NCBI GenBank assembly: GCA_016932475.1
Contig: JAFGCU010000120.1
Location: 4,562 to 68,561, forward strand
DNA length: 64,000 nucleotides
Origin: Anaerolineales bacterium
GTDB taxonomy: Bacteria > Chloroflexota > Anaerolineae > Anaerolineales > RBG-16-64-43
Reading direction: 5' to 3'
Shown: piece by piece, positions 34,254-64,000 of the stretch
How positions within the stretch are numbered: position 1 is the first letter of the stretch
How the letters are laid out: each line of letters opens with the position of its first letter
Translations under genes and position numbers: made by a program
Notes under the pieces: model-generated
Told to the model about the DNA's origin: nothing
Databases searched by the model: none
The model's input: the letters and a program-made list of their open reading frames with translations, nothing else

Positions 34254-34379
34254 AAGGACGCGAAGAATATAAAAATATTTTTTTCCCTCTGCGTGCTCTG
34301 CGTCCCTGGCCCAGCCCGACCAGGGCGGGCTTTGCGGTGAAAGGGTTTTCTTCGCCTTACTTCTTCTCCCCCGCCGGTT
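34254..34379 (+). repeat. Direct repeat copy 2 (126 nt), overlapping the true 3' end of the GGDEF gene
   Basis: See 33879-34002. The two copies bracket a 251-bp segment that is mostly AT-rich. Confidence 0.9.
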
Positions 34380-37029
34380 CGGAAAGCGTATCCGCCTCCC
34401 CGGTCCCCTTCCGCGACTTCTCGCCGCGCGCCGGCTCCGCGGGTGCGGTGTACGGCCAGGGCATCGGCTCGGGAACGCGCGTCCGGTTGCGTCCGGTTTG
34501 CTTGGCGTCATACAGCCAGCGGTCGGCTTCATCGATCAGCCGGTGCACGTCGTTGGCGTCCTCCGGGAAGGTCGCCCCGCCCGCCGATACGGTGATCGAG
34601 ATCGATTTATCGTCCACCAGGAACGGCTGCATTGCGATTCCCTGCCTGAGCCGCTCGCCCACACCGGCCAGGGAACTCGCCGGCGTGCCGGGCAGAATGA
34701 CCGCGAACTCCTCGCCGCCGTAGCGCGCGAGGATATCCACCGCGCGCAGCTCTTCCTTGATCCGGCGCGCCACCATCTGCAGGATCCGGTCGCCGATCGG
34801 GTGGCCGTGGGTGTCGTTGACCAGTTTAAAATGATCGATGTCGTAAATGAGGAGCGAAACCGGGTACCCGATCCGCCGCGCGCGGTCGATCTCCAATTGC
34901 AGCTGCTCGTGGAAGTAACGCCGGTTGTAGATCCCGGTGACGAAATCGGTGATCGAAGCCTGCTCCACTTCGCCGAAGGTCAGCGCGTTGAGAAGCGCCA
35001 AAGCGGCGTGGCCAGCCAGGCTCTCCAGGCGGCTGGCATGGTCGGCGGAATAATATCCGCGCTCGGCTTTGTCCATCGAGAGGAATCCCAGCAGCTGTTC
35101 GCCCGTCACCAGCGGCGCGCCGACCCACGAACCCACATGCCAGGTCGGTCCGATCGACTGCCAGCCCGGATCGGTCTGGACGTCCGGGATGAAGTGCGGG
35201 TGAAGCGTGGTGGCCATGTGGTGAATGCCGCTCAGGCGTTCGATCGGCAAGTCCAGCCGCGCGATCCACTCCGTGAGTCCGAAGCGCTCGTATCCGCGGT
35301 GCGAAGCCACCCGCACCCGGTCGCCCTGGAGCAGCATGACGTTGGCGCTGTCGAAGGGAACCACCCGGCCGATCTGTTCGAGCAGCGTTTCGAGAATGGT
35401 GCCCGCCCGCAGCGAGCCGGAGAGGATCAACCCGATGTCGCGCAGGGTCTCGGCCAGGATCCGCTGCTGGTGTTCACTCTCGTAAAGCCGGGCGTTCACC
35501 AGCGCCAGGGCGGCCTGCTCGGCCGGCACCCGCAGGCGCTGGAGTTCGAGCGCGGAAAACGACCGGTTGTTCTGGCGGCTGTACAACCGCAGGAGACCGA
35601 GCGCCTTGCCCCCCGCCCACAATGGGATCATCAGCAACGCGCCGTAATGCAGCTGGCGCAGGAGGGCCGCCTCGCTCGGGTGAACCTGCGGATCGTCGAT
35701 CCGCAGCAGCAGCGGATCGCTGCCTTTAAGCACCTGCATGCTCACCGGAGAATCCGCGAGCGCATACCCGGTCCCGAATTCGCGGTCGGTCCGTTCCCCG
35801 AACGCCGAATACGCCGCGAGAGTCCGGACCTGGCCCTGCTCCATGTCGACCGAGGCGATGACGCAGGCATCCATCCGCGCCGTCCAGACCAGCAGCACGG
35901 CGATCTGCTGCAGCAGTTCCTCGAGGTCGAGCGTGGACGTGACCACCCGCGCCATATCGACGATCATCCGCAGGTCGGATTCGCGCTGGCGGCTTTCCTC
36001 GAGCAGGCGGAGGCGCTCGATCGTCCCGGCCGCCTGCACCGCGTACAGCGTAAGCCCGTCCATCTCCGCCTGCGAGAAGGTATGCGGGAGCGAGTAGCGG
36101 ACCGAAAGCACGCCGATCACCTGGTTGCGGATCTTGAGCGGCAGGCCGACCAGCGTGACGACGCCCTTCGCGCTCAGCAGTTCGCGATCCTCCGGCGGCG
36201 TCAGCTCCTCCGTCAGGAGCACTTTGGGAGTCCCGGCGGCCAGGATTTCCGTCACCAATGATTCCGGATGCGGGACGGTCTCGTCGAGGATCTCGCGCCC
36301 GGCGTTGTCCACCCCGTGGCTGAGCGAGATCTTCCCCTCCTGGTCGATCAGGTACACGATCGCGGATTGGGCGGTGGTCGCCATCAAGGCGAACTTGGCT
36401 GTGAGTTCCAGAGCCTGGGGGAAGGTGGTGGCGGCGATGATCCGGCTGCCGAATTCGTAGAACCGGGTGAGCTGGATATTGGCCGTCTGGGATTGCGCAA
36501 ACAGGCGTGATCCGAACAGCAGCACGGCGATGTGCCCGGCCAGGCTTTCCAGCCAGGCGGTCTCTTCCGCGCTGAAGCGGTGCGGCTCCGAGTCGTTAAG
36601 ATCCAGCACGCCAAGGATCTGGCCGCCGGAAATGAGCGGCAGGCTGACCTGGGATTTCATCCCCAGAGCGCGCAGCGGCTCGCCGAGGATCGGCTCGTCG
36701 GCGGAGTGTTCGACGGCGATCATCTTCCGGGATTGATACGCCCGCCCGGCGATGACCTCGCCGGCTACCAGCCTCCGCCGCCGTTCCTCCGGCCCAATGC
36801 GCGCGCCGGCTTCCGCCATCAGGTGCAGGACCTCCCCGCCGTCGCCGGTGAGATAGATCGCGGCCGACGGCATTCCGCTGAAGGTAATCGCGGCATCGAG
36901 CAGGTCCGGCAGCAGGTTTTCGATGCTGCGGATGGACGCGGATTTTTCGACCAGCTTGCCGAGGAAATTCAATAATTCGGGGAGGGATTTCCCGAACGGC
37001 GAGGACTGTGCCTGGATCGGATCGGTCAT
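34357..37029 (-). CDS. Multi-GAF-domain diguanylate cyclase (GGEEF active site, RxxD I-site)
   Basis: 890 aa from the ATG at 37029 (MTDPIQAQ). Repeated GAF-like units, then a C-terminal GIYNRRYF...IYDIDHFKLVNDTHGH...RAVDILARYGGEEF. The start overlaps the rpe stop (ATGA). Confidence 0.85.
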   Translation of the reverse strand: MTDPIQAQSSPFGKSLPELLNFLGKLVEKSASIRSIENLLPDLLDAAITFSGMPSAAIYLTGDGGEVLHLMAEAGARIGPEERRRRLVAGEVIAGRAYQSRKMIAVEHSADEPILGEPLRALGMKSQVSLPLISGGQILGVLDLNDSEPHRFSAEETAWLESLAGHIAVLLFGSRLFAQSQTANIQLTRFYEFGSRIIAATTFPQALELTAKFALMATTAQSAIVYLIDQEGKISLSHGVDNAGREILDETVPHPESLVTEILAAGTPKVLLTEELTPPEDRELLSAKGVVTLVGLPLKIRNQVIGVLSVRYSLPHTFSQAEMDGLTLYAVQAAGTIERLRLLEESRQRESDLRMIVDMARVVTSTLDLEELLQQIAVLLVWTARMDACVIASVDMEQGQVRTLAAYSAFGERTDREFGTGYALADSPVSMQVLKGSDPLLLRIDDPQVHPSEAALLRQLHYGALLMIPLWAGGKALGLLRLYSRQNNRSFSALELQRLRVPAEQAALALVNARLYESEHQQRILAETLRDIGLILSGSLRAGTILETLLEQIGRVVPFDSANVMLLQGDRVRVASHRGYERFGLTEWIARLDLPIERLSGIHHMATTLHPHFIPDVQTDPGWQSIGPTWHVGSWVGAPLVTGEQLLGFLSMDKAERGYYSADHASRLESLAGHAALALLNALTFGEVEQASITDFVTGIYNRRYFHEQLQLEIDRARRIGYPVSLLIYDIDHFKLVNDTHGHPIGDRILQMVARRIKEELRAVDILARYGGEEFAVILPGTPASSLAGVGERLRQGIAMQPFLVDDKSISITVSAGGATFPEDANDVHRLIDEADRWLYDAKQTGRNRTRVPEPMPWPYTAPAEPARGEKSRKGTGEADTLSEPAGEKK

Positions 37030-37727
37030 GACGGAACCGCGGCGGAAAGCGCGGCTGCGCGCAGCGCGCGGACGGCGTCGCCGATCGGAACCGCCGCCCG
37101 GAATATGGACACGCCCGCCACCAGAACGCTGGCACCCGCCTCCACAAGGGTGGCGGCGTTGGCGGTTGAAATGCCGCCATCGACTTCCAATTCCGCCATG
37201 GAGTTGGCGGCCGTCAGCCATTCGCGGATCCGCTTGATGCGCGCCACGGCCTCCGGCAGGAACTTCTGCCCGCCGAACCCCGGTTCGACCGACATGACCA
37301 GGATCTGGTCCGCATAGGGCAGGCCGGCCTGGATCGAGAGCAAGGGAGTTCTCGGCCGCAGGGTCAGCCCGCTGCGCGCCTTATGCGTGCGGATCATCTT
37401 GAGCGTGCCGAACACATCCTTGGAGGCTTCCACCTGGATGGTGATGATATCGGCTCCGGCGAGGGCGAACTGGGGGACAAAACGCTCGGGTTCCTCGATC
37501 ATCAGGTGCACGTCGACGACGGCGCCGGCCTTATGGACCATCGGCGCCAGGGCCTCGACGACGACCGGGCCGACGGAAATATTCGGGACGAACTGTCCAT
37601 CCATGACGTCCATATGGATGTATTCCGCGCCGGCTTCGAGCGCCTGCGCGACCTGATCCCCCAGATGAAGGAAATCGGCGGCCAGAATGGATGGTGCGAT
37701 TTTTATCGTGGATGGCATGACACGCAT
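37026..37727 (-). CDS. rpe: Ribulose-phosphate 3-epimerase
   Basis: Contains KIAPSILAADF, HMDVMDGQFVPN, MSVEPGFGGQKF and VDGGI. The start is 37727 (MRVM) or 37718 (MPST). Confidence 0.88.
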   Translation of the reverse strand: MRVMPSTIKIAPSILAADFLHLGDQVAQALEAGAEYIHMDVMDGQFVPNISVGPVVVEALAPMVHKAGAVVDVHLMIEEPERFVPQFALAGADIITIQVEASKDVFGTLKMIRTHKARSGLTLRPRTPLLSIQAGLPYADQILVMSVEPGFGGQKFLPEAVARIKRIREWLTAANSMAELEVDGGISTANAATLVEAGASVLVAGVSIFRAAVPIGDAVRALRAAALSAAVPS

Positions 37728-38153
37728 TTTCCCGGGCGGATCTCCGGCTTGCCATTCCGAGGAGCGCCGTCCCGTGGAAGCGGCTGCTTCTCTGCCCACC
37801 GGCACAGTCATCCCTGCGTCAAAACCGGAGCTGGCGGGGATGCTTCCGGAGGGCGTGCGCGCACGGGTTCGGTGCCCGGCATGAATATCCGGCGTTGGGT
37901 TAATTTTACTCCTATTGGTAAAAGGCATTCTTGGAGAAAAATTGCGGGGGTTTTCCGCACCCGGCACACCAAATCCACACCGGTCATTCACAAAAAAGGG
38001 CTGTCTTCGCCCGGGTCCTTCACCCGCCCGAGCGATGATGGATGCTCGGGGATAGCGGGACAATCCGCCATTTCCGCGCCTGTCCTCGCGCCACGCGGGC
38101 GCTCTTGGCGCATGCCGCCCAAGCCCCGTCTTTTTCTCCCGCTTCCAAACGCG

Positions 38154-39461
38154 TTACGCCTGAGCGTCCGCGACAACCGCTGCAATCGCCGCGCCGATGC
38201 CGGAACCGTCCTTGATCAGGCGTGTGGTCACGCTGCGGGCGCCCGGCCCCAGGACGGCCTCCAGACCGGCGCGGATGCCCGCGTCGTAACCCGGCATGTG
38301 CGCGTAGAGCGAACCGTCGATCGCCACCACATGCCCGCGTCCGAGCCCGGGATCAAGGTAGCGCACTACCCCCGCATAGGTGGCGCCCGCCAGCCGGGCG
38401 GAGCGTCCGGTGACACTCTCCACCAGCTTCCGAATGGACAGCAGCTGCTCCTTCGACAAATCCGTCAGCGCCAATTGGGTTTGCGCCACGCTTTTTGTTT
38501 TGCCGCAATCCGGCCCGTCCTTGAGCACCTGGGTCAGGTTAACGCCGGTAAGCGTTCCGCGATCCCAGCTTTTGTTTGCGGCGGGGAGCAACCCTTCGGC
38601 GGTCATCGCCCGAAGCGCGGCCAGCACCACTTCGCCAAGGTAGGCTCCGGAGACCTGCTTTTCGAGCAGTTGCGCCCCGGGGTAGCCGCTGGCGTCGTTC
38701 ACCGCCCGGTCGAACGGGGTGAGCGTTACTCCGTCGAAGTTGCCCGATTCCATATTCACGATCATCGGCTGCCCCGTAAGCGGATGGCAGGGTTCAAGGT
38801 AGCAGGTGTTGTGGCCCGTTCCGCAGATGCTGCCGAGGTCGACATCCCGCAGCTGATAGGCGGCCGCGATCAGCGTTCCGACCGTATCGTTGATAACCGC
38901 CCGGGGCCGGACGTGGCGCACGCCCTGGCGCTCGAGCGCTTCGGTCAGCAACGGCGTCACATCCCGCCCTTCGACGCCGCTCGTCCGGATCTCCTTGGTC
39001 CATTGGATCAGTACCGCCTGATTGATGCCCTCCTGCCGGCATGGAAAGGAGAAGGTGTGCCCGAGCGGCAGTATCGCGCTTTCGCCCGCCAGCACATCGG
39101 CCACATGGCGCGCAATGAAGTCGAAGAGCTCCTCCGCCCGGGTCTGCGCGCGGGTATGGTCGTAAGTCCCCTTGGGATCCTTCAGGCAGAAGGAACTGGA
39201 TTTTTCAGACTGCGCCCGGCCGTCGGCCAGACGAACCCTGAGGACCCGGACGTTGGTTCCGCCGAAATCGACCGCGACAGCATCGCCCCGCTCGCCGCCG
39301 CCCGGCCGGGCGAGATAGGAGGGCAGCATTCGGAGCGAACTCGGCCGCCCGGCAAGTCCCTCGCGCATGGCCGTCTCGAAGCGCGCGGCGACAAGCTTCA
39401 GCGCTTCGGACGTGAGATCGAGCTGACCGCGGGCTTCTTTCATAAAGTCGGCAAGGCCCAT
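38154..39461 (-). CDS. Hexokinase-family (eukaryote-type) sugar kinase
   Basis: LRMLPSYL...AVDFGGTNVRVLRV, LGHTFSFP and INDTVGTL are hexokinase_1/2 signatures. The start MGLADF at 39461 follows AGGAG. Confidence 0.8.
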   Translation of the reverse strand: MGLADFMKEARGQLDLTSEALKLVAARFETAMREGLAGRPSSLRMLPSYLARPGGGERGDAVAVDFGGTNVRVLRVRLADGRAQSEKSSSFCLKDPKGTYDHTRAQTRAEELFDFIARHVADVLAGESAILPLGHTFSFPCRQEGINQAVLIQWTKEIRTSGVEGRDVTPLLTEALERQGVRHVRPRAVINDTVGTLIAAAYQLRDVDLGSICGTGHNTCYLEPCHPLTGQPMIVNMESGNFDGVTLTPFDRAVNDASGYPGAQLLEKQVSGAYLGEVVLAALRAMTAEGLLPAANKSWDRGTLTGVNLTQVLKDGPDCGKTKSVAQTQLALTDLSKEQLLSIRKLVESVTGRSARLAGATYAGVVRYLDPGLGRGHVVAIDGSLYAHMPGYDAGIRAGLEAVLGPGARSVTTRLIKDGSGIGAAIAAVVADAQA

Positions 39462-39894
39462 GATTTGCTCCTGCACGTAAAAAATAAAGGATTGGCCGGA
39501 AGCCGGATTTGCCGGATGAGGCTCATTATACTTAATCCGCGCCCGGGTTTCATATCCATACGGGCATCTGCCGCTGACAGGGACGGCAAAAAGCGTCCTG
39601 CGGGACCAAGCAAACGGCGGGCTCTCCTCCGATATTTCTTGCCCCCCTCCGGATAGACCGGTATACTTCCCGTGTTCTGAAAACCGACAATCGACCATGG
39701 CTGCGGTATAAATGGAAACCTTTCCCGTGTACGAGTCCGCACGGCGGGTTGGGCATTGGGGAATCGGAATCTTTTAAAAGCGCGAATCCCCGGTCCGCCC
39801 TCCCCTATCGATGCAACGGTGGATCAGTTTTTACCTGTCCGGCCGCCCCTTGCGGGCGGCCATCCCGGTGGACGGCCCATACAAGGTGAACGCA

Positions 39895-41484
39895 ATGCTT
39901 CCCGATTACCGCATCCGCCAGCGCGACGTCCTGCTCGAAATCATCCGCACCATCACCCAGGAACTGGATCTGGACCGGGTGCTGGAGAAAATCCTGCGCG
40001 CCTCGGTCGAGATCCTCAACGGCCAGGCCGGGATCATCGCGCTGCCGGGCAGCGGCCTTTCGGAATCCGGCTCGTGGCGGATCGCCGCCTCGGTCGGCAT
40101 GGCGCCCGCCTTCCTCAAATCGCTGGACATTATTTTGCGCGAGCTCCCGCAAACGGATGACGCCCAGCATCTCCTGCTCCCGGAAATCGACCGCCGCCTG
40201 CGGCGCCTGACCCATGAAGCTTCGCTCGGCTGGCTGGCTTCCCTCGGCCTGCCGATGGTGACGCGCGGGACGGTCGTCGGCGCGGCCTACATCTTCCGCA
40301 CCGGGCCGGTCAGCTTCACCGAGAACGAGCGCGCGCTGCTGCAATCCTTCGCGGATCAGGCCGCGGTGGCGGTGGCGAACGCGCGCCTGTTCGCCCTGGT
40401 GCGCGAGGAAAAGCAGCGGATGGACGCGATTCTGGATTCGTCCGCCGAGGGCATCGCCATCCTCGGACCCGACAACCGCATCCAGCGTTTCAACCGCGCG
40501 ATCGCCCGGCTCTCGGGCGTCACGCCGGAGGAAGCCGTCGGCCTCCCGCACGACGACGTGCTGCGCTTCACCGCCATCCAGACCGGGCGCACGCTTTCCC
40601 AGGCGGAGGCCGGCGGCTGGCCGCTTTCGGACCGGGCCACGCTCTACCTGGAGGCGGATCTCGTCCGCGCGGCGGGCGGGCCGCTCTCGGTCGGCGCGAC
40701 CTACGCGCCCGTGTTCACCCAGGATCGGAACCTCCTCAACATCGTCATCGGGATGCGCGATCTCACCCGCTTCCGCGAAGCGGAGGAAATGAAGGATACG
40801 TTCATCTCGATCATCAGCCACGAATTGAAAACCCCCGTCGCGCTGATCAAAGGCTACGCCAGCACCCTCCGCCGCGAGGACGTCCACTGGGAGCGGCAGG
40901 TGGTCGCGGATTCGCTTTCGGTGATCGAAGAGGAAGCCGACCGCCTGACCGTGCTGATTGACGACCTGCTGGATGCCTCGCGCCTGCAGGTCGGCGGGCT
41001 CTCCCCGAATTACTGCGAGGTGGATATCCCGCGGCTGGCCGCGCGGGTCGCCGAGCGCGCCACCCGCCAGTTCCCGGGCCGCGTGATCCGGACCAGGTTC
41101 CCGCCGGCCTTCCCGCTTGTCTCGGCCGACGAGACTCGCATCAGCCAGGTGCTCACCAACCTCGTTTCCAACGCGGTTAAATATTCCGCGCCGGAATCAG
41201 CGGTCGAGATTCACGGCGTCGCGGCCCCGGAGGAAGTAACCGTCACGGTCGAGGATCAGGGCTACGGGATCGACGGCAAGGATCTTCCATATGTATTCGA
41301 TCGGTTCTACCGCGGTCCGGAGAACGCCAAGCGGACCAAGGGCGCGGGGCTGGGGTTGTACCTCGCGAAAGCGGTGGTGGAAGCGCACGGCGGCAGGATC
41401 TGGATCGAAAGCCAGCCCGGTCGGGGGACCCGAGCGTCGTTCACCCTCCCGCGCACACCGGAATCCGCCGTAAAAAAAATCTAA
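39895..41484 (+). CDS. Sensor histidine kinase (GAF + PAS + HisKA + HATPase_c), cytoplasmic, no adjacent response regulator
   Basis: FISIISHELKTPVALIKGYAS is the H-box, followed by the N box NLVSNAVKY and the G boxes DQGYGI and GAGLGLYLAK. AAGGTGA precedes the ATG at 39895. Confidence 0.85.
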   Translation: MLPDYRIRQRDVLLEIIRTITQELDLDRVLEKILRASVEILNGQAGIIALPGSGLSESGSWRIAASVGMAPAFLKSLDIILRELPQTDDAQHLLLPEIDRRLRRLTHEASLGWLASLGLPMVTRGTVVGAAYIFRTGPVSFTENERALLQSFADQAAVAVANARLFALVREEKQRMDAILDSSAEGIAILGPDNRIQRFNRAIARLSGVTPEEAVGLPHDDVLRFTAIQTGRTLSQAEAGGWPLSDRATLYLEADLVRAAGGPLSVGATYAPVFTQDRNLLNIVIGMRDLTRFREAEEMKDTFISIISHELKTPVALIKGYASTLRREDVHWERQVVADSLSVIEEEADRLTVLIDDLLDASRLQVGGLSPNYCEVDIPRLAARVAERATRQFPGRVIRTRFPPAFPLVSADETRISQVLTNLVSNAVKYSAPESAVEIHGVAAPEEVTVTVEDQGYGIDGKDLPYVFDRFYRGPENAKRTKGAGLGLYLAKAVVEAHGGRIWIESQPGRGTRASFTLPRTPESAVKKI

Positions 41485-41629: not shown

Positions 41630-42988
41630 ATGCCCCCTATTCAAACGACGATTAAATGCCCATCCTGCGGAACCCCGCAACCTGCGCTCCTCGAGCAGGT
41701 GATCGACGTCGGGCGCGATCCCGGATCCAAAACGCGCCTGCTGCAGGGGCGGTTGAATTTCTTCCAGTGTCCCGGTTGCGGATTTCAGGGCATGCTGGCC
41801 TCGCCGCTCGTGTACCACGACCCGCTCAAGGAACTCCTCCTCACTTTTGTCCCGCCGGAACTGCGCCTCTCGCCGATCGAACAGGAAAAAATTCTCGGAG
41901 GGCTGACCCAGCAGGTGCTCAACGCCCTGCCGCCCGAACAGCGGAAAGGCTACCTCCTGCGGCCGCAAGCCGTCCTCACCGCCCAGGGGTTGATGGAACG
42001 CGTGCTCGAGGCGGACGGGATCACCAAGGAGATGCTTGAAGAGCAGCGCGCCAAGTCGAAGCTGGTCCGGGACCTGGTCGACGCCGAACCCGATGCGCGC
42101 CCGGCCCTCATCCAGGAACAGGACGGCCGGATCGATTCGGACGTGCTGGCGCTGATCGGCGCCATCGCCCGCTCGGCGGCGGGCAAGGAAGACAAGGCAT
42201 TCGCAGAGAAAGTCCTGAAAGCCCGGGATGACGTCTACCGGCTCTCAACCGCTGGGAAGCGGGCCCAAACCCAGAAGGAGGAGATGGATGCCGCCGCCCG
42301 CGATCTGGAAGTGCTGGGCAGGGAATTCAACCTGGATGCGCTCGTGAAGCTGGTCTCCTCAGCGCCTTCCCTGGACCGGGTCACCGCGCTGGCCGCGCTG
42401 GCCTGGCAGGTGATGGATTACGCGTTCTTCCAGCGCTTTACGGAGACGCTTGAAAAAACCGTCGGCTCCGAACGCGAACGGCTGACCGCCATCCGCGACC
42501 GCGCGCTCGAGGAAGTCCAGCGCGTGCAGCAGGCGATGCAATCCGAGATGAACCTCACCGCCGGGGTCCTGCAGAGCATCCTCCAGGCGCCGGACCTGGA
42601 CGCGGCGATCGAGGAACACCTTCCGGAATGCAGCGACCTGTTTTTCGCGGTGCTCGAGGCGAATCTCGAAAGCGCCCGCCGCAACAAACAGGAAAACGCC
42701 ATCCAGCGCCTGGAGGAAGTGAAGGCCAAGCTTCTCGCCGCGCTGGAAAACTCGCTCCCGCCGGAGCTGCGCTTCGTGCGCGACCTGCTCGGGGCGGAGA
42801 ACGACGAACAGGCGCAGAAGTTGCTGGCCGAACGGCCGGCGGAAGTCACCGACAACTTCGTCGCCGCCCTGCGGGCGACCGTCAAGGATCTGGAACCCAC
42901 GCCGCAGGAACCGCTCGCGGCGCGGATGAAGAGACTCCTCGATCTGGCGGAGAAGCAGCTCGCCATGGCGAAGTTCACCGGGAAATGA
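41630..42988 (+). CDS. CpXC-domain protein with a long helical C-terminal region
   Basis: N-terminal paired zinc-ribbon motifs (CPSCGTP...CPGCGFQG) with the spacing of the CpXC domain. The rest is helical and unassigned. Confidence 0.6.
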   Translation: MPPIQTTIKCPSCGTPQPALLEQVIDVGRDPGSKTRLLQGRLNFFQCPGCGFQGMLASPLVYHDPLKELLLTFVPPELRLSPIEQEKILGGLTQQVLNALPPEQRKGYLLRPQAVLTAQGLMERVLEADGITKEMLEEQRAKSKLVRDLVDAEPDARPALIQEQDGRIDSDVLALIGAIARSAAGKEDKAFAEKVLKARDDVYRLSTAGKRAQTQKEEMDAAARDLEVLGREFNLDALVKLVSSAPSLDRVTALAALAWQVMDYAFFQRFTETLEKTVGSERERLTAIRDRALEEVQRVQQAMQSEMNLTAGVLQSILQAPDLDAAIEEHLPECSDLFFAVLEANLESARRNKQENAIQRLEEVKAKLLAALENSLPPELRFVRDLLGAENDEQAQKLLAERPAEVTDNFVAALRATVKDLEPTPQEPLAARMKRLLDLAEKQLAMAKFTGK

Positions 42989-57856: not shown

Positions 57857-57948
57857 GACAGGATTACCAGGATTTTTATCAGGATATTCAGGAAGGTAGT
57901 AAATTATAAAAAACCTGTAAATCCTGAACCAATCCTGCAATTCCTGTC
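57857..57948. repeat. Imperfect inverted repeat built from four CAGGA(T/A) units per arm
   Basis: The left arm (57857-57892) has caggat at 57859, 57868 and 57880 and caggaa at 57889. The right arm (57914-57948) is the mirror image. The AT-rich loop contains TATAAT on the minus strand. The repeat abuts the GH94 stop codon. Confidence 0.8.
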
Positions 57949-60392
57949 TAATATATCGTCGCCTCGACCGCCACCTCGTCCGTGCCCGGCGCCGGCAGCG
58001 GGATGGTGTTCCCGGACACCGCCTTGCCGTCGACCATGAGCGAGACCGAATTGCCCTTCCCGCTGCGTTTGACCGAGATGCGGTAGGTGACCCCCCGGTA
58101 TTTGCGGACAGCCGTAAAACCCTTCCAGAGCGACGGGATCACGGGCGCAATCTGGAGGCCTTTCAGCGTCGGGCGGATCCCCAGGATGAATTGCGTGACC
58201 GCGTAGAAATTCCAGGCCGCGGTGCCGGTCAGCCAGGAGTTCTTCGCCTCGCCGTGCGTCGGCGCGTCGCGCCCCGCAATCATCTGCGGGTAGACGTACG
58301 GCTCGCAGCGGTGCACCTCGCCGATGCCCTCGCGCGCGGAAGGGTTGATCCGGGTGTAATACTCGTGAGCCTGGTCGCCGTTGCCGGTCATCGTTTCGGC
58401 AATGATGATCCACGGATTGTTATGACAGAAGATGCCGGCGTTCTCCTTGTACCCCGGCGGATAGGAGGAAATCTCGCCGTATTCGATGTAATAGCGGGTG
58501 AAGGCCGGCTGGTTGAGGACGATCCCGTGCCTGGTTGCGAGCCGGGTCTTGACCGATTCAAGCGCCTTCTGCGCCATCCCGTCTTGGAGCCCGATCCCGG
58601 CCATGACGCACATGCCCTGGCTCTCGATGAAGATCTGGCCTTCTTGGCATTCCTTCGAACCCACCTTGCGGCCGAAATCGTCGTAGGCCCGGACGAACCA
58701 CTCGCCGTCCCAGCCGTGCTTGCGGACGGTCTCCTTCATCCGCTCGGCTTCCCAGCGGCAGCGCTTGGCGTCCCCGCGGCGGTCGAGCATCTCCGCCAGG
58801 TCCGCCAGCTCGTTCGCCGCGAGCACGAACAGACCGCCGATGAAAACCGACTCGGCCGTCTTGCCATCCTTGCTGGTCGTGGTCTGGAAGGATTGGCCAG
58901 GCGTGTCGGAAAAGCAATTTAAATTAAGGCAGTCGTTCCAGTCCGCGCGGCCGATGAGTGGCAGCTTGTGGGGCCCAAGGCGGTCGAGCGTGTACTGGAG
59001 CGATCGCCGGAGATGGTCATAGAGCGGCTTCTCGCTGCCGGGTTCGTTCTCGTACGGCACCTTCTCGTCCAAGATCGACGTATCGCCCGTTTCCTTTATG
59101 TAGGTGTTGACGCCCAGGATCAGCCACAGCGGGTCGTCGTTGAAGCCGCTGCCGACATCGTTGTTGCCGCGCTTGGTCAGCGGCTGGTACTGGTGGAACG
59201 CCCCGCCGCTTTTTAGCTGCGTCGCCGCCAGGTCCAGGATCCGTTCCCGGGCCCGCGACGGGACCATCTGGACAAACCCCAGCAGGTCCTGGTTCGAATC
59301 GCGGAACCCGAGGCCCCGCCCGACGCCGGATTCATAAAACGAAGCCGAGCGCGACATGTTGAAGGTGGCCATGCACTGGTACGCGTTCCAGATGTTCACC
59401 ATCCGGTTGGTGTGCAGGTCGGGCGTATCAACCTGGATCACCGAGAGGGTCTCATCCCAGTATTGCCGCAGCGCGCGGAAGGCCGCTTCCACGTTTTGCA
59501 CGTCGCGGTATTTCGCGACCACCATTTCGGCGTTTTGTTTGTTGACGGTTTGGGAATCCGCCGGAAGGAACTTCCGGTCTTTCGGATTCTCCTGATACCC
59601 GAGAATGAAGACGATCTGTTTGGTTTGTCCGGGCTTCAGGCTGATCTTTACGTGGTGCGATCCGATCGGAGCCCAGCCGTGGGCGATGGAATTGGCCGAG
59701 CGGCCGCTTTCCACAACCGCCGGGTTATCCCAGCCGCGGTAGGCTCCGAGGAATGCCTCGCGCTGGGTGTCGAACCCGGCGAGTTTCTCGGAGCAGGCGA
59801 AGTAGGCGAAGTGATCCCGGCGTTCGCGGTATTCCGTCTTGTGGTAAATCACGCCGTCTTCGACCTCGACCTGCCCGGTGTTGAAATTCCGCTGGAAGTT
59901 GGTCTGGTCGTCCCAGGCGTCCCACAGGCAGAACTCGATCGAGGAAAACACCGAAAGCTTGGCGGGCTTCTTGCGGCGGTTGGTGACGGTCAACTGCCAG
60001 ATTTCCAAATTCTCGCCCATCGGCACGAAGTAGCGGGTGCTGGCTTCGATCCCTTCGTACGTCGATCCGATGGTGGTGTAACCCATCCCGTGCCGGCAGG
60101 AGTAACGCTCGGCCTTGTGGCGGGTCGGCATCCAGGAAGGCGACCAGAATTCACCGCTCGCGGCGTCGCGCATGTAAATGTATCGCCCGCCCATGTCGAA
60201 CGGCGCGTTGTTGTACCGGTAGCGGGTGATCCGCCGCAGGCGCGCGTCCTTATAAAAGGAATATCCTCCGGCGGTATTGGAAATTAATCCGAAGTAGGCT
60301 TCGCAGCCGAGGTAGTTGATCCACGGCAGGGGTGTGTCGGGCCGGGTGATGATGTACTCTCTGCGTTTGTCGTCAAACTTGCCGTAGCGCAT
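57948..60392 (-). CDS. GH94 cellobiose/chitobiose/cellodextrin phosphorylase
   Basis: MRYGKFDDKRREYIITRPDTPLPWINYLG is the typical GH94 N-terminus. 814 aa. AGGAG precedes the ATG at 60392. Confidence 0.88.
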   Translation of the reverse strand: MRYGKFDDKRREYIITRPDTPLPWINYLGCEAYFGLISNTAGGYSFYKDARLRRITRYRYNNAPFDMGGRYIYMRDAASGEFWSPSWMPTRHKAERYSCRHGMGYTTIGSTYEGIEASTRYFVPMGENLEIWQLTVTNRRKKPAKLSVFSSIEFCLWDAWDDQTNFQRNFNTGQVEVEDGVIYHKTEYRERRDHFAYFACSEKLAGFDTQREAFLGAYRGWDNPAVVESGRSANSIAHGWAPIGSHHVKISLKPGQTKQIVFILGYQENPKDRKFLPADSQTVNKQNAEMVVAKYRDVQNVEAAFRALRQYWDETLSVIQVDTPDLHTNRMVNIWNAYQCMATFNMSRSASFYESGVGRGLGFRDSNQDLLGFVQMVPSRARERILDLAATQLKSGGAFHQYQPLTKRGNNDVGSGFNDDPLWLILGVNTYIKETGDTSILDEKVPYENEPGSEKPLYDHLRRSLQYTLDRLGPHKLPLIGRADWNDCLNLNCFSDTPGQSFQTTTSKDGKTAESVFIGGLFVLAANELADLAEMLDRRGDAKRCRWEAERMKETVRKHGWDGEWFVRAYDDFGRKVGSKECQEGQIFIESQGMCVMAGIGLQDGMAQKALESVKTRLATRHGIVLNQPAFTRYYIEYGEISSYPPGYKENAGIFCHNNPWIIIAETMTGNGDQAHEYYTRINPSAREGIGEVHRCEPYVYPQMIAGRDAPTHGEAKNSWLTGTAAWNFYAVTQFILGIRPTLKGLQIAPVIPSLWKGFTAVRKYRGVTYRISVKRSGKGNSVSLMVDGKAVSGNTIPLPAPGTDEVAVEATIY

Positions 60393-60797: not shown

Positions 60798-63104
60798 ATG
60801 TCGCACCTTTTCCCTCGAATCCTTGTGGTGGATGACGACGCCGACACCCGCCAGCTTGTACAAATGATCCTTGCCCGGGCCGGTTATGAGGTCGTGCTCG
60901 CCGAAGATGGCGAATCGGGATGGAAATCTCTTATGGAAGCCCGGCCGGATTTGCTGCTGACGGACATCATGATGCCGAATCTGGACGGGCTTGCGCTGCT
61001 TCGGCGCGTGCGGGCGCATTCCCCCACCCGTACGCTCCCGGTGATCCTGCTCAGCGCCAAGGCGACGGTGGACGAAGTCGCCGAAGGATTGGACCTGGGG
61101 GCGGACGATTACCTGACCAAACCCTTTCACAAGACGGAGCTTCTGGCGAGGGTGCGCGCAAAAATCACGCCCCCCGCACTCCCGGGAGATCCGGCCGCGC
61201 CGGAGCGCATCTCCGGGTTGCTCTCGGAAGGACGGTTCATGGACGAACTCCGGCGCGAGGTTGATCGCGTGAACCTCGACGGGAACACCGCCTGCCTGGC
61301 GCACCTCACCTTTCCCGAGGCAAGACGCATCCGTCAAACATTGGGCGCAGACGCAGACCTCGCTTCGCAGGTCGCATCCGATTTTCAGGAATCGGACCGG
61401 CGGCTGGATTTAATCGGACGCGATTCCTCCGGCCACTTCCTGATACTGCTGCCTCATACAACCTCCGAACAGGCCCGCGTGCGCCTGGAAGCGTTCGGCT
61501 GCCGGATGGCATCGCGGATATTTCACACAAGCGGCCGCTCCTTCCATCTCACCCCTGCGACCGGATTTGTGGTCTTCGGCGCTGGCGCAACCGCCGACCG
61601 GATCCGGCAGCAGGTCGAACGAGCCCTCGAACACGCCGCATTGCAACTGGATCTCACTCCCGCGGAATACGATCCCTCGATGGAACGCGCCGCGCCGGGC
61701 GCCCATCCCGTCCGGGCGGGGAAGTGGGATGCCGTTCGCAGCCGCCTGCTGGTCCCGTTTCAGCTGGCGGCGGTCCTCCTGCTGAGCTGGGTCCTCCCCT
61801 TTTTCGCGTATCGCGGATTGGATTCCATCGGCTTCGACATCAGCCGTTACGTTTATCTGATCGTGGTGGCCGCGCTGGCGGCGACGGCGTTTTTCATCTG
61901 GCTCGAGGGATGGATCGCGCTGCGCCGGATCGAGCCGCCGGCCGAGCCCGGCTCTCCGTTCCCCCCCGCCACGGCGATCATCGCCGCCTACCTGCCCAAT
62001 GAGGCGGCAACCGTCCTCGAAACGGTGGAGGCTTTTCTCCGCATCGATTATCCCGCGCCGCTCCAGATCATCCTCGCCTACAACACCCCGCGGGCGATGC
62101 CGATTGAGGAGGAATTTCGGGAATTGGCCGCCCGCGACAGCCGCTTCCTCCCCATGCGCGTGAAGGGCAGCACTTCCAAGCCTCAGAACATCAACGCCGC
62201 CCTCGTGGAAGTCACCGGGGAGTTCGTCGGGATCTTCGACGCCGACCATCTCCCGGAGCCGGACGTGTTCACCCGCGCCTGGCGGTGGCTTTCGAACGGC
62301 GCGGACGTCGTCCAGGGCCATTGCGTCGTCCGCAACGGCGACGCGTCGTGGGTTGCTCGCATGGTGGCGGTCGAGTTCGAGGCGATCTACGCCGTCAGCC
62401 ACCCCGGCCGCGCCCGGCTGCACGATTTCGCCGTGTTCGGGGGATCGAACGGCTACTGGCGGACCGAAGTGCTGCGCCGGACCCGCCTGTACAGCACGAT
62501 GCTGACGGAAGACATCGATTCCTCCATCCGGATCGCTTCCTATGGCGGGAAGATCGTCTGCGATCCGGGGATCATTACCCGCGAATTGGCCCCGACCACA
62601 CTGCGCCATCTGTGGGACCAGCGCGTGCGTTGGGCGCAGGGGTGGTACCAGGTCTCCCTGCGGCGGTTCTGGGATTCGCTGCGGTCGCCGGCGCTCTCCG
62701 GCCGCCAGAAGGCCGGAATTATCTGGCTGCTGGGGTGGCGCGAAATCTACCCCTGGATCGCGGACCAGATGTTCCCGCTCATCGCCTTTCTGGCGTTGAA
62801 AGCCGGCGGGCTGGATAAACTGGATTGGCTGATCCCGATCTTCGTGATAACGACTCTTTTCACCCTGAGCGTCGGCCCCGGCCAGACCCTCTTCGCGTAT
62901 TGGCTTGGCGACGGCAAGATCCGCCGCCGCAAAGGATGGTTCTGGAGTTACCTGTTGCTGTCTTCCGTGTTCTATACGGAATTCAAGTACATCATCGCGC
63001 GCATCGCGCAGATCAATGAATGGATGCGCGTGCGGTCGTGGAAGATCACACCTCGCGCGGAACCCGGGCAGGCCGTGGTCCCCGCTCCCGAAACCCCGGG
63101 ATGA
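60798..63104 (+). CDS. Response-regulator receiver / degenerate GGDEF (I-site retained) / membrane-embedded processive family-2 glycosyltransferase fusion
   Basis: The REC domain is intact (DD, LLLTDIMMP, LLSAK, YLTKPF). The GGDEF fold reads RRLD-LIG-R-D-SSGHF in place of RxxD-x3-R-x-GGEEF. TM helices follow, then the GT2 motifs LPNE, FDADH, TEDIDSS and QRVRWAQGW. Confidence 0.85.
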   Translation: MSHLFPRILVVDDDADTRQLVQMILARAGYEVVLAEDGESGWKSLMEARPDLLLTDIMMPNLDGLALLRRVRAHSPTRTLPVILLSAKATVDEVAEGLDLGADDYLTKPFHKTELLARVRAKITPPALPGDPAAPERISGLLSEGRFMDELRREVDRVNLDGNTACLAHLTFPEARRIRQTLGADADLASQVASDFQESDRRLDLIGRDSSGHFLILLPHTTSEQARVRLEAFGCRMASRIFHTSGRSFHLTPATGFVVFGAGATADRIRQQVERALEHAALQLDLTPAEYDPSMERAAPGAHPVRAGKWDAVRSRLLVPFQLAAVLLLSWVLPFFAYRGLDSIGFDISRYVYLIVVAALAATAFFIWLEGWIALRRIEPPAEPGSPFPPATAIIAAYLPNEAATVLETVEAFLRIDYPAPLQIILAYNTPRAMPIEEEFRELAARDSRFLPMRVKGSTSKPQNINAALVEVTGEFVGIFDADHLPEPDVFTRAWRWLSNGADVVQGHCVVRNGDASWVARMVAVEFEAIYAVSHPGRARLHDFAVFGGSNGYWRTEVLRRTRLYSTMLTEDIDSSIRIASYGGKIVCDPGIITRELAPTTLRHLWDQRVRWAQGWYQVSLRRFWDSLRSPALSGRQKAGIIWLLGWREIYPWIADQMFPLIAFLALKAGGLDKLDWLIPIFVITTLFTLSVGPGQTLFAYWLGDGKIRRRKGWFWSYLLLSSVFYTEFKYIIARIAQINEWMRVRSWKITPRAEPGQAVVPAPETPG

Positions 63105-63231
63105 CTTGCGCTCGTCATGCCGGCGCGTTCTAAGCCGGCATCCAGGACATGCGCTCGTCTTACCGGTGCGTACTAAGCCGGCATCCAGGACATGCGCTCG
63201 TCATGCCGGCGCGTACTAAGCCGGCATCCAG
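63103..63231 (+). repeat. 3 x 43-bp tandem repeat, each unit a hairpin (atgccggc N9 gccggcat)
   Basis: Units at 63103-63145, 63146-63188 and 63189-63231, delimited by hand. The first unit overlaps the TGA stop of the GT2 fusion. Confidence 0.9.
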
Positions 63232-63344
63232 GATCATTCCTGAAGAATCCTTTCCCCCATGCCCTGGATCCCGGCCAGGATCTCGCCGGGATGACGGACT
63301 TCTTCGCATCCGCCGCCGGACCCCCGCCCGCGTTATAATTAAAC

Positions 63345-64000
63345 ATGCCCACCACCCCCCATATAATCGGATTCGACAACGAAAAGTACCTCGCCGAACA
63401 GACCGTCGCGATCCTCGAACGCATGAAAGCCTCCGACAACAAGCTGTACCTGGAGTTCGGCGGAAAGCTGCTGTTCGACATGCACGCCTCGCGCGTCCTG
63501 CCCGGGTTCGACCCGTGCGTCAAGATGCGCCTGCTGCACAACCTTAAGGACCAGGCCGACATCATCCTGTGCATCTTCGCCGGCGACATCGAGCGCAAGA
63601 AGGTCCGCGCGGATTTCGGGATCACCTACGACGCGGATGCGGTCAAGCTGATCGACGACCTCAAGGAGCGCGGAGTCCCGGTCGCGGCGGTGGTGATCAC
63701 GCGCTTCGAAGAACAGCCCGCGGCAAGCATTTTCAAGAACAAGCTCGAGCGCCGCGGCATCCGCGTCTTCACCCATAAGCTGATCCGCGGCTACCCGACC
63801 GATATCGAGCACATCGTCAGCGACGAAGGCTACGGCCTGAACCCCTACATCGAAACGACCAAACCGCTGGTGGTCGTGACCGGCCCCGGCCCCAACAGCG
63901 GCAAGCTTTCCACCTGCCTCTCCCAGCTCTACCACGAATACCGGCACGGGGTTAAGGCGGGGTATTCCAAATTCGAAACTTTCCCGATCTGGAACCTGCC
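63345..64000 (+). CDS. DUF1846 (UPF0371) family protein, N-terminal part (runs off the right edge)
   Basis: I translated from the ATG at 63345: [57 protein letters not shown]...[23 protein letters not shown]. This matches the GFD..KY...Q and [10 protein letters not shown] signature of the family. It is not in the ORF track because it is open-ended. Confidence 0.75.

Follow-up and report, generated by a model that had tools for sequence, protein, structure and literature searches.

A candidate phosphorelay-controlled synthase of exopolysaccharide, with receiver and catalytically dead GGDEF domains in cis, encoded by an Anaerolineales bacterium

Here, we describe a predicted membrane glycosyltransferase encoded in a 64,000-nucleotide stretch of DNA from an Anaerolineales bacterium (contig JAFGCU010000120.1, positions 4,562 to 68,561; this whole stretch is called the window below). 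The open reading frame (ORF), at 60798..63104 on the plus strand, runs without interruption through 768 codons' worth of protein and, judged from sequence comparison, probably encodes an exopolysaccharide synthase that is gated by a phosphorelay and has a dead cyclase as its adaptor. The protein would be a membrane-embedded, processive family-2 glycosyltransferase (GT2)—i.e., a synthase-type polymerase and exporter of exopolysaccharide—whose activity is most likely switched post-translationally by phosphorylation of a fused receiver domain (REC) at Asp56. Phosphorylation would activate, rather than inhibit, the synthase. The REC-GGDEF module appears to descend from a response-regulator cyclase of the PleD/WspR/DgcR type and to have lost all cyclase residues, and its dead GGDEF domain may connect the receiver, which is tethered flexibly, to the synthase as an adaptor or as a module for dimerisation or docking, and would pass on the signal.

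The layout of the protein was examined with Pfam and with an AlphaFold model of the full-length chain (predicted local distance difference test [pLDDT] 86.7, predicted template-modelling score [pTM] 0.74). In the model, the receiver is followed by a disordered linker, a GGDEF fold, two transmembrane (TM) helices, a GT-A domain, an interface helix carrying QRVRW, and a C-terminal helical bundle (Table 1). This bears out the four parts—receiver, GGDEF fold, TM pair, and GT2 with further TM helices—into which the original prediction for this gene had divided the ORF. Within the linker, residues R125, P126 and P129 are almost invariant in the synthase family. Searches against NCBIfam returned receiver matches and weak GT2 matches, none of them near a curated cut-off.

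The architecture is widespread, not rare. A homology search gave 3556 matches at E ≤1e-5, of which we examined the best 120, spanning 45% to 87% identity. According to precomputed Pfam annotation, about 110 of these carry Response_reg, usually GGDEF, and GT2 models in a protein of ~760–790 aa. Chance does not account for the architecture, given that almost all of the best 120 matches share it and that homologues reach 87% identity. For species-level counts, we kept one genome per species, which gave at least 567 confirmed relatives, and used the best 80 loci, all of which have the architecture; nearly all of them cover query residues ~8–755, and two fragments at contig ends are shorter. An exact look-up of the query protein in the assembly index gave no match, and gene neighbourhoods were taken from the homologous loci. 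The hosts include Chloroflexota (Anaerolineae, Chloroflexia and Thermomicrobiales), Actinomycetota (Cellulomonas, Cryobacterium, Mycolicibacterium, Kineococcus and Streptomyces), Deinococcus, Acidobacteriota, Gemmatimonadota, Dormibacterota and some Alphaproteobacteria, and source annotations call the proteins just "response regulator" or "glycosyltransferase."

The receiver had been read as complete, and all five active-site residues were indeed found. Residues 8–120 match PF00072 with 107.4 bits against a cut-off of 30.2 (E 5.6e-31), and the active-site quintet comprises the acidic pair D12/D13, the phospho-acceptor D56 (nt 60963–60965), S86 and K108. The closest solved receiver is that of PleD (E 4e-28). 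D56 and K108 were kept wherever the REC region was aligned among the best 120 database matches, D56 was retained in 67 of the 80 species-level homologues, and the signature residues D13, D56 and K108 are almost invariant across phyla. As a separate observation, several clades (L047 and L052, both Deinococcus, and L053, L057, L067, L068, L072 and L076) have pseudo-receiver versions, in which the acidic pair and the phospho-acceptor Asp are replaced and the remaining architecture is kept.

We then asked which genes lie beside the synthase, counting as a phosphorelay neighbour any kinase, single-domain receiver or histidine phosphotransfer (Hpt) gene on the same strand and at ≤3 kb. Such a neighbour was present at 35/80 species-level loci, and kinase, receiver and Hpt genes occurred together at 13/80. 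The linked kinase gene often abuts or overlaps the stop codon of the synthase. Kinase gene density reached 0.81 per 10 kb at ≤3 kb, while at 3–6 kb from the synthase in the same loci it was 0.06 per 10 kb, a 14-fold difference. One Blastococcus locus (L007) has the gene order kinase, REC, synthase, Hpt, and there the synthase gene shares a few bases with both the REC and the Hpt gene. This conserved linkage to phosphorelay genes strongly supports the view that phosphorylation would be an input to the synthase family.

The second domain is recognized by Pfam only just: PF00990 scored 24.1 bits over residues 139–280, barely over its gathering cut-off of 23.8. A domain-only AlphaFold model of the region was nonetheless well defined (pLDDT 92, pTM 0.88) and superposed on solved GGDEF domains with TM-scores of 0.80–0.86 and a root-mean-square deviation of 2.1–2.9 Å over ~160 columns. 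In phmmer comparisons with solved cyclases (7e6g and 3ign), RRLD fell on RxxD and SSGHF on GGEEF. The fold proposed for residues ~138–290 was thus found by both the HMM scan and structure prediction, and the assignment is secure despite the marginal Pfam score. The domain had also been called catalytically dead, and its residues agree: SSGHF stands in place of GG[DE]EF and LTFPEA in place of DxDxFK, and the cyclase residues are degenerate in every homologue examined.

A dead GGDEF domain may still bind cyclic di-GMP (c-di-GMP) at its inhibitory site (I-site), and the original prediction had made this the second of two inputs: phosphorylation via the receiver and c-di-GMP at RRLD of the dead GGDEF would both gate polymerisation in cis. 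The geometry on which the proposal was built was confirmed exactly at 61398–61439. RRLD (nt 61398–61409), LIGRD and SSGHF (nt 61425–61439) follow one another with canonical spacing, RxxD lying five residues ahead of the signature as in PleD, and they line up with RAVD-ILARY-GGEEF of another protein encoded in the window, which has four GAF domains and a GGDEF domain (4xGAF-GGDEF). The alignment with the RxxD of solved cyclases and the well-kept fold favour the proposal too, as do the intact cyclase signature of a GGDEF protein encoded in the genome and the GGDEF-domain genes that lie within 200 bp of the synthase at 3/87 loci. Moreover, degenerate GGDEF domains with an RxxD motif are proven c-di-GMP receptors of polysaccharide machines: PelD (R367/D370/R402) and BcsE, both of which need RxxD (PMC8461298, PMC8892547), and PssE (PMC4125290).

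However, the preserved I-site loses its value as evidence of a receptor once the family is considered. The RxxD arginine, R201, was present in 20/81 species-level and 59/121 top-hit alignment rows (query included in both), and with a column entropy of 3.29 bits it ranked 133 of 151 GGDEF-domain positions in conservation. Relatives of 69–79% identity have lost the motif, which reads LPQD in P0004, QPLE in P0009, GPMD in P0010 and PPPA in P0015, and a hand count found it in 7/26 Chloroflexota loci, with no enrichment there. GGDEF-domain genes neighbour the synthase at 6/87 loci and are therefore rare compared with the two-component neighbours at 35/80. When RxxD was cross-tabulated with adjacent two-component genes, the latter were found at 5/19 loci with the motif vs. 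27/61 without it, a weak contrast. The position of PleD R390 is taken by Ala232 in a manual alignment, and R236 matches the PelD offset only in the absence of indels; the search for a secondary arginine of the PleD R390 or PelD R402 type by sequence offset was ambiguous and was dropped. No Rfam family reached the gathering threshold anywhere in the window, which was scanned in particular for a c-di-GMP riboswitch preceding the gene.

The family's RxxD pattern suggests that an ancestral I-site has drifted rather than that a receptor has been maintained, and c-di-GMP binding at RRLD would be, at best, an optional, lineage-specific extra. We therefore retain only half of the two-input proposal—phosphorylation, for which the phosphorelay linkage is conserved—and part from its c-di-GMP half because RxxD is poorly conserved; gating of the synthase by both inputs seems unlikely. 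It is likewise doubtful that RRLD binds c-di-GMP even in the lineage of the query and that the protein acts there as a one-polypeptide coincidence detector needing both an Asp56 phosphorelay and c-di-GMP.

What, then, might the dead GGDEF domain do? Its best-conserved positions (A276, P253, G256, D285, L286, E154, R157, T252 and E174) include none in the I-site, and E154, R157 and D285 are almost invariant across phyla. Natural variants were obtained from a search of 1.84 billion representatives, which returned 51,628 matches at E ≤1e-30 (a number that includes REC-only and GT2-only matches and is not used as the family size), combined with Pfam scans. They reveal a modular family, in which the GT2 core occurs alone (P0175), with the degenerate GGDEF (GGDEF*) and no receiver (P0145), as GGDEF*-GT2-TPR (P0154), as GGDEF*-GT2-TPR-PgaA barrel (P0156), and as REC-x-REC-GGDEF*-GT2 forms of ~1100 aa (P0016 and P0048). 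Since the GGDEF-like domain is kept without a fused receiver in P0145, P0154 and P0156, it would seem to be needed by the synthase itself. P0016 and P0048, together with L025, L035, L042 and L080, are extended at the N terminus by a further receiver and a weak GGDEF_2-like segment, a layout resembling the tandem receivers of PleD.

A natural fission of the gene was also found. In a 79%-identical relative with the same ACS-GH94 synteny (L088/L089), a 134-aa receiver gene is followed by a 268-bp spacer and then by GGDEF*-GT2 (L088 4328–6965). The separate receiver is 67% identical to that of the query, and the split falls exactly at the disordered Pro-rich linker, which implies docking as the mode of action of the receiver and physical coupling of the synthase to its GGDEF-like domain.

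In Foldseek comparisons, the first 300 residues matched the REC-GGDEF cyclases PleD, WspR and DgcR as a two-domain unit (E 1e-17 to 1e-15), with the same layout and fold. This two-domain match suggests that the module is a captured response-regulator cyclase, and cyclases of this type are its likely evolutionary source. They differ from it in being active GG[DE]EF enzymes, whereas the module described here has SSGHF, a disordered Pro-rich linker and a fused synthase as its output. In solved structures of PleD, WspR and DgcR, a helical stalk lies between REC and GGDEF.

The C-terminal half of the protein had been described as a cellulose-synthase-like GT2, which the comparisons uphold. Pfam placed Glyco_tranf_2_3 (PF13641, E 1.7e-24) at residues 389–615 and Glyco_trans_2_3 (PF13632, E 5.3e-21) at residues 479–666. 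Among proteins of solved structure, BcsA gave the best match in sequence (E 4e-11), with an alignment spanning the TM region, and Foldseek matched the fold to BcsA, hyaluronan synthases and the archaeal mannosyltransferase PcManGT. In the full-length model, the TM helices ahead of the GT-A domain (309–343 and 349–374) align with TM helices of BcsA, and an amphipathic and TM bundle follows it (602–628, 635–656, 658–669, 678–703 and 712–743); BcsA and hyaluronan synthase can be aligned with the helices predicted before and after the GT domain. DAD (aa 481–483, nt 62238–62246), TED (aa 570–572, nt 62505–62513) and QRVRW (aa 608–612, nt 62619–62633) are all present, and DAD, TED and QRxRWAQGW are invariant in the best 120 database matches. 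The earlier statement that every processivity motif was present holds for these three motifs, but not for the first UDP-binding motif, since LCDDGG of BcsA corresponds here to LAYNTP (window 62070–62090, aa 425–431), a reading almost invariant in the family.

No NCBIfam equivalog cut-off was met by the GT2 part. The best-scoring named family was PgaC/IcaA (TIGR03937, 79.5 bits against a cut-off of 422.3), followed by CelA/BcsA (TIGR03030, 54.2 against 699), EpsU (42 bits) and NodC (TIGR04242, 30.3 against 550); the BcsA model PRK11498 scored 35.8 against 992. These scores, AYNTP in place of the first UDP-binding DDG motif, the best target-normalised TM-score (TMt), which went to PcManGT (6yv7, TMt 0.77), and the fact that no conserved export partner genes were seen around Gram-positive or monoderm members would all suit a membrane-bound GT2 enzyme that, like minimal enzymes of the cellulose-synthase fold, transfers sugar to a lipid or builds short oligosaccharides rather than polymerising and exporting. 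We consider such an enzyme improbable. The high TMt is mostly due to the small size of PcManGT, TED and QxxRW—motifs of processive beta-glycan synthases—are invariant, and the BcsA alignment covers the TM region. In addition, the GGDEF-like region and GT2 core recur in P0156 in one chain with TPR repeats and an outer-membrane barrel of the PgaA type, a fusion that points to an exported polymer. We infer a beta-linked, exported polymer as the product. P0154 and P0156 carry long TPR arrays in proteins of 1605–1967 aa, and in P0156 synthase and porin are thereby joined in one polypeptide.

Several observations weigh against a phosphorelay-gated synthase in this organism. No kinase, Hpt or single receiver gene adjoins the synthase in the window or in its close relatives; RxxD is intact in the query and in its nearest relatives (P0001–P0003 and L081); and, since YN replaces DDG, the use of a donor and even activity are not certain. 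The missing two-component neighbours in the window would also fit a REC-GGDEF module that is a relic with no signalling role here, the synthase being constitutive or regulated only at transcription, as would the loss of the phospho-acceptor Asp in Deinococcus (L047 and L052) and in L053, L057 and L067, and the existence of P0175 as a GT2 core-only relative. Orphan response regulators are common, however, and the receiver of this protein retains its whole active-site quintet. Mean column entropy shows the receiver (1.97 bits) and the dead GGDEF (2.32 bits) to be less conserved than the GT domain (0.92 bits), yet D13, D56, K108, E154, R157 and D285 are near-invariant across phyla. A relic is thus very improbable in our judgement, and control of the synthase through Asp56 is the reading we prefer.

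We found no description of a REC-GGDEF-GT2 synthase in the searchable literature, the coverage of which is incomplete, in line with the earlier statement that no synthase of such architecture had been described. Among known systems, BcsA is likewise a membrane GT2 with DxD, TED and QxxRW motifs, flanking TM helices and a regulatory domain in cis. In contrast to BcsA, the Pfam scan detected no PilZ domain in our synthase, which has an N-terminal REC and a dead GGDEF instead, and YN for DDG. PgaC/IcaA resembles it as the best-scoring named GT2 family and through the PgaA-type barrel of P0156, but the score is far under the cut-off and PgaD is lacking; PgaCD binds c-di-GMP at the subunit interface (PMC10333796). 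PelD, BcsE, PssE and YdaK also supply polysaccharide synthase systems with a GGDEF fold that is catalytically dead, although they do so as separate, RxxD-dependent proteins in trans, whereas here the module is fused in cis and RxxD is unconserved in the family. BcsE itself is a REC*-GGDEF* tandem (PMC8892547), but its receiver is degenerate, while that of the synthase is intact.

The earlier list of c-di-GMP-gated synthases, which named PilZ domains and separate degenerate-GGDEF partners as receptors, was incomplete, because NfrB (GT2 with MshEN; PMC8669469) and BgsA (GT2 with a C-terminal c-di-GMP-binding domain; PMC5567048) carry a receptor in cis. Both are like our protein in being processive GT2 synthases with a fused regulatory domain, and unlike it in that their receptors have other folds, sit at the C terminus and come with no receiver domain. 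Fusions of one or two receivers to a BcsA-like PF13641 glycosyltransferase have been noted bioinformatically in archaea (MTH_548 type; PMC5847659); these are restricted to Methanobacteriaceae and uncharacterised, and a GGDEF-like adaptor is not described for them. Lastly, a functional precedent is a single-domain response regulator reported to activate directly the phosphoglycosyl transferase that initiates an exopolysaccharide pathway (PMC12802240). There too a receiver acts post-translationally on an enzyme of polysaccharide biosynthesis, but it does so in trans, on a phosphoglycosyl transferase and in a Wzx/Wzy- or ABC-transporter-dependent pathway.

In the characterised bacterial synthase-type machines that we reviewed (cellulose, poly-N-acetylglucosamine, Pel, alginate, NfrB and BgsA), c-di-GMP is the route of post-translational control. 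The family described here would add another principle, a two-component receiver on the synthase itself with a former cyclase domain re-used as adaptor. Through this fusion, polymerisation would come under phosphorelay control with neither a transcription factor nor a second messenger in between. The family may also be an evolutionary snapshot of local c-di-GMP signalling short-circuited through domain fusion. Were the coincidence detector real, the family would represent a response-regulator cyclase captured by its own target synthase, with the second messenger later bypassed in most lineages; and were the I-site functional in the query lineage, it would provide the first cis-fused gate on a synthase that requires the coincidence of phosphorylation and c-di-GMP. 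The family occurs in many soil, sludge and sediment lineages (Anaerolineae, Actinomycetota and Deinococcus among them) whose matrix polymers are little known, and it therefore offers a tractable entry to their biofilm or sheath polymers.

Table 1. Features of the synthase gene and of other genes in the window, with window coordinates
Feature	Position	Strand	Content or basis
Whole gene	60798..63104	+	REC, dead GGDEF, 2 TM helices, GT2, C-terminal TM bundle; 768 aa
Receiver (REC), aa 8-120	60819..61157	+	PF00072
Pro-rich flexible linker, aa 124-139 (TPPALPGDPAAPERIS)	61167..61214	+	pLDDT <50 at aa 126-138 (full-length model)
Degenerate GGDEF-fold domain, aa 139-290	61212..61667	+	PF00990, phmmer, AlphaFold model, structure superposition
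RRLD aa 201-204, LIGRD, SSGHF aa 210-214	61398..61439	+	Read in sequence; aligned to cyclases
Two N-terminal TM helices, aa 309-374	61722..61919	+	Full-length model; alignment to BcsA TM helices
GT-A catalytic domain, aa 389-600	61962..62597	+	PF13641, PF13632, BcsA, Foldseek
Interface helix with QRVRW and C-terminal TM bundle, aa 602-743	62601..63026	+	Full-length model
GH94 cellobiose phosphorylase, ~814 aa, divergent neighbour	57948..60392	-	PF17167, PF06165; context only
4xGAF-GGDEF protein, RAVD and GGEEF	34357..37221	-	Pfam, motif; possible c-di-GMP source
GAF-PAS-HisKA-HATPase histidine kinase	39811..41484	+	Pfam; candidate kinase, unlinked

The GH94 neighbour had been taken as a hint of a beta-linked glucan or chito-oligomer product. 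The gene is real, divergent and specifically a cellobiose phosphorylase, matching that of C. thermocellum (3qde) over its full length with 1146 bits, compared with 522 for chitobiose phosphorylase. Its link to a beta-glucan is lineage-specific, however: adjacency was seen at 1/80 species-level loci and is limited to close relatives, so it says little about the product. We rejected this canonical cellobiose phosphorylase as a product clue.

Two further genes in the window had been put forward as possible sources of the inputs. The 4xGAF-GGDEF protein with its cyclase signature and the histidine kinase are both real, their genes lying ~23 kb and ~19 kb or more, respectively, from the synthase (19–23 kb), but the kinase is only generically similar to synthase-linked kinases (31% identity in the kinase core, 110–150 bits) and is not assignable as a partner of the synthase. 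Between these two genes are long overlapping ORFs (37383–39656 on the plus strand and 38154–39698 on the minus strand), and the plus-strand ORF, of 757 aa, is without a Pfam match. A CpXC-domain protein (PF14353) is encoded directly downstream of the kinase, at 41630–42988 on the plus strand.

Downstream of the synthase, a 43-bp unit is repeated three times (90% matches) at 63103–63233, beginning at the synthase stop codon. Each unit contains a GC-rich palindrome (GCCGGCGCGTACTAAGCCGGC) with the look of a repetitive extragenic palindromic (REP) element or a terminator. A DUF1846 (PF08903) gene follows on the plus strand at 63344–64000 and runs past the end of the window, and this order is kept in the close relatives L001 and L088.

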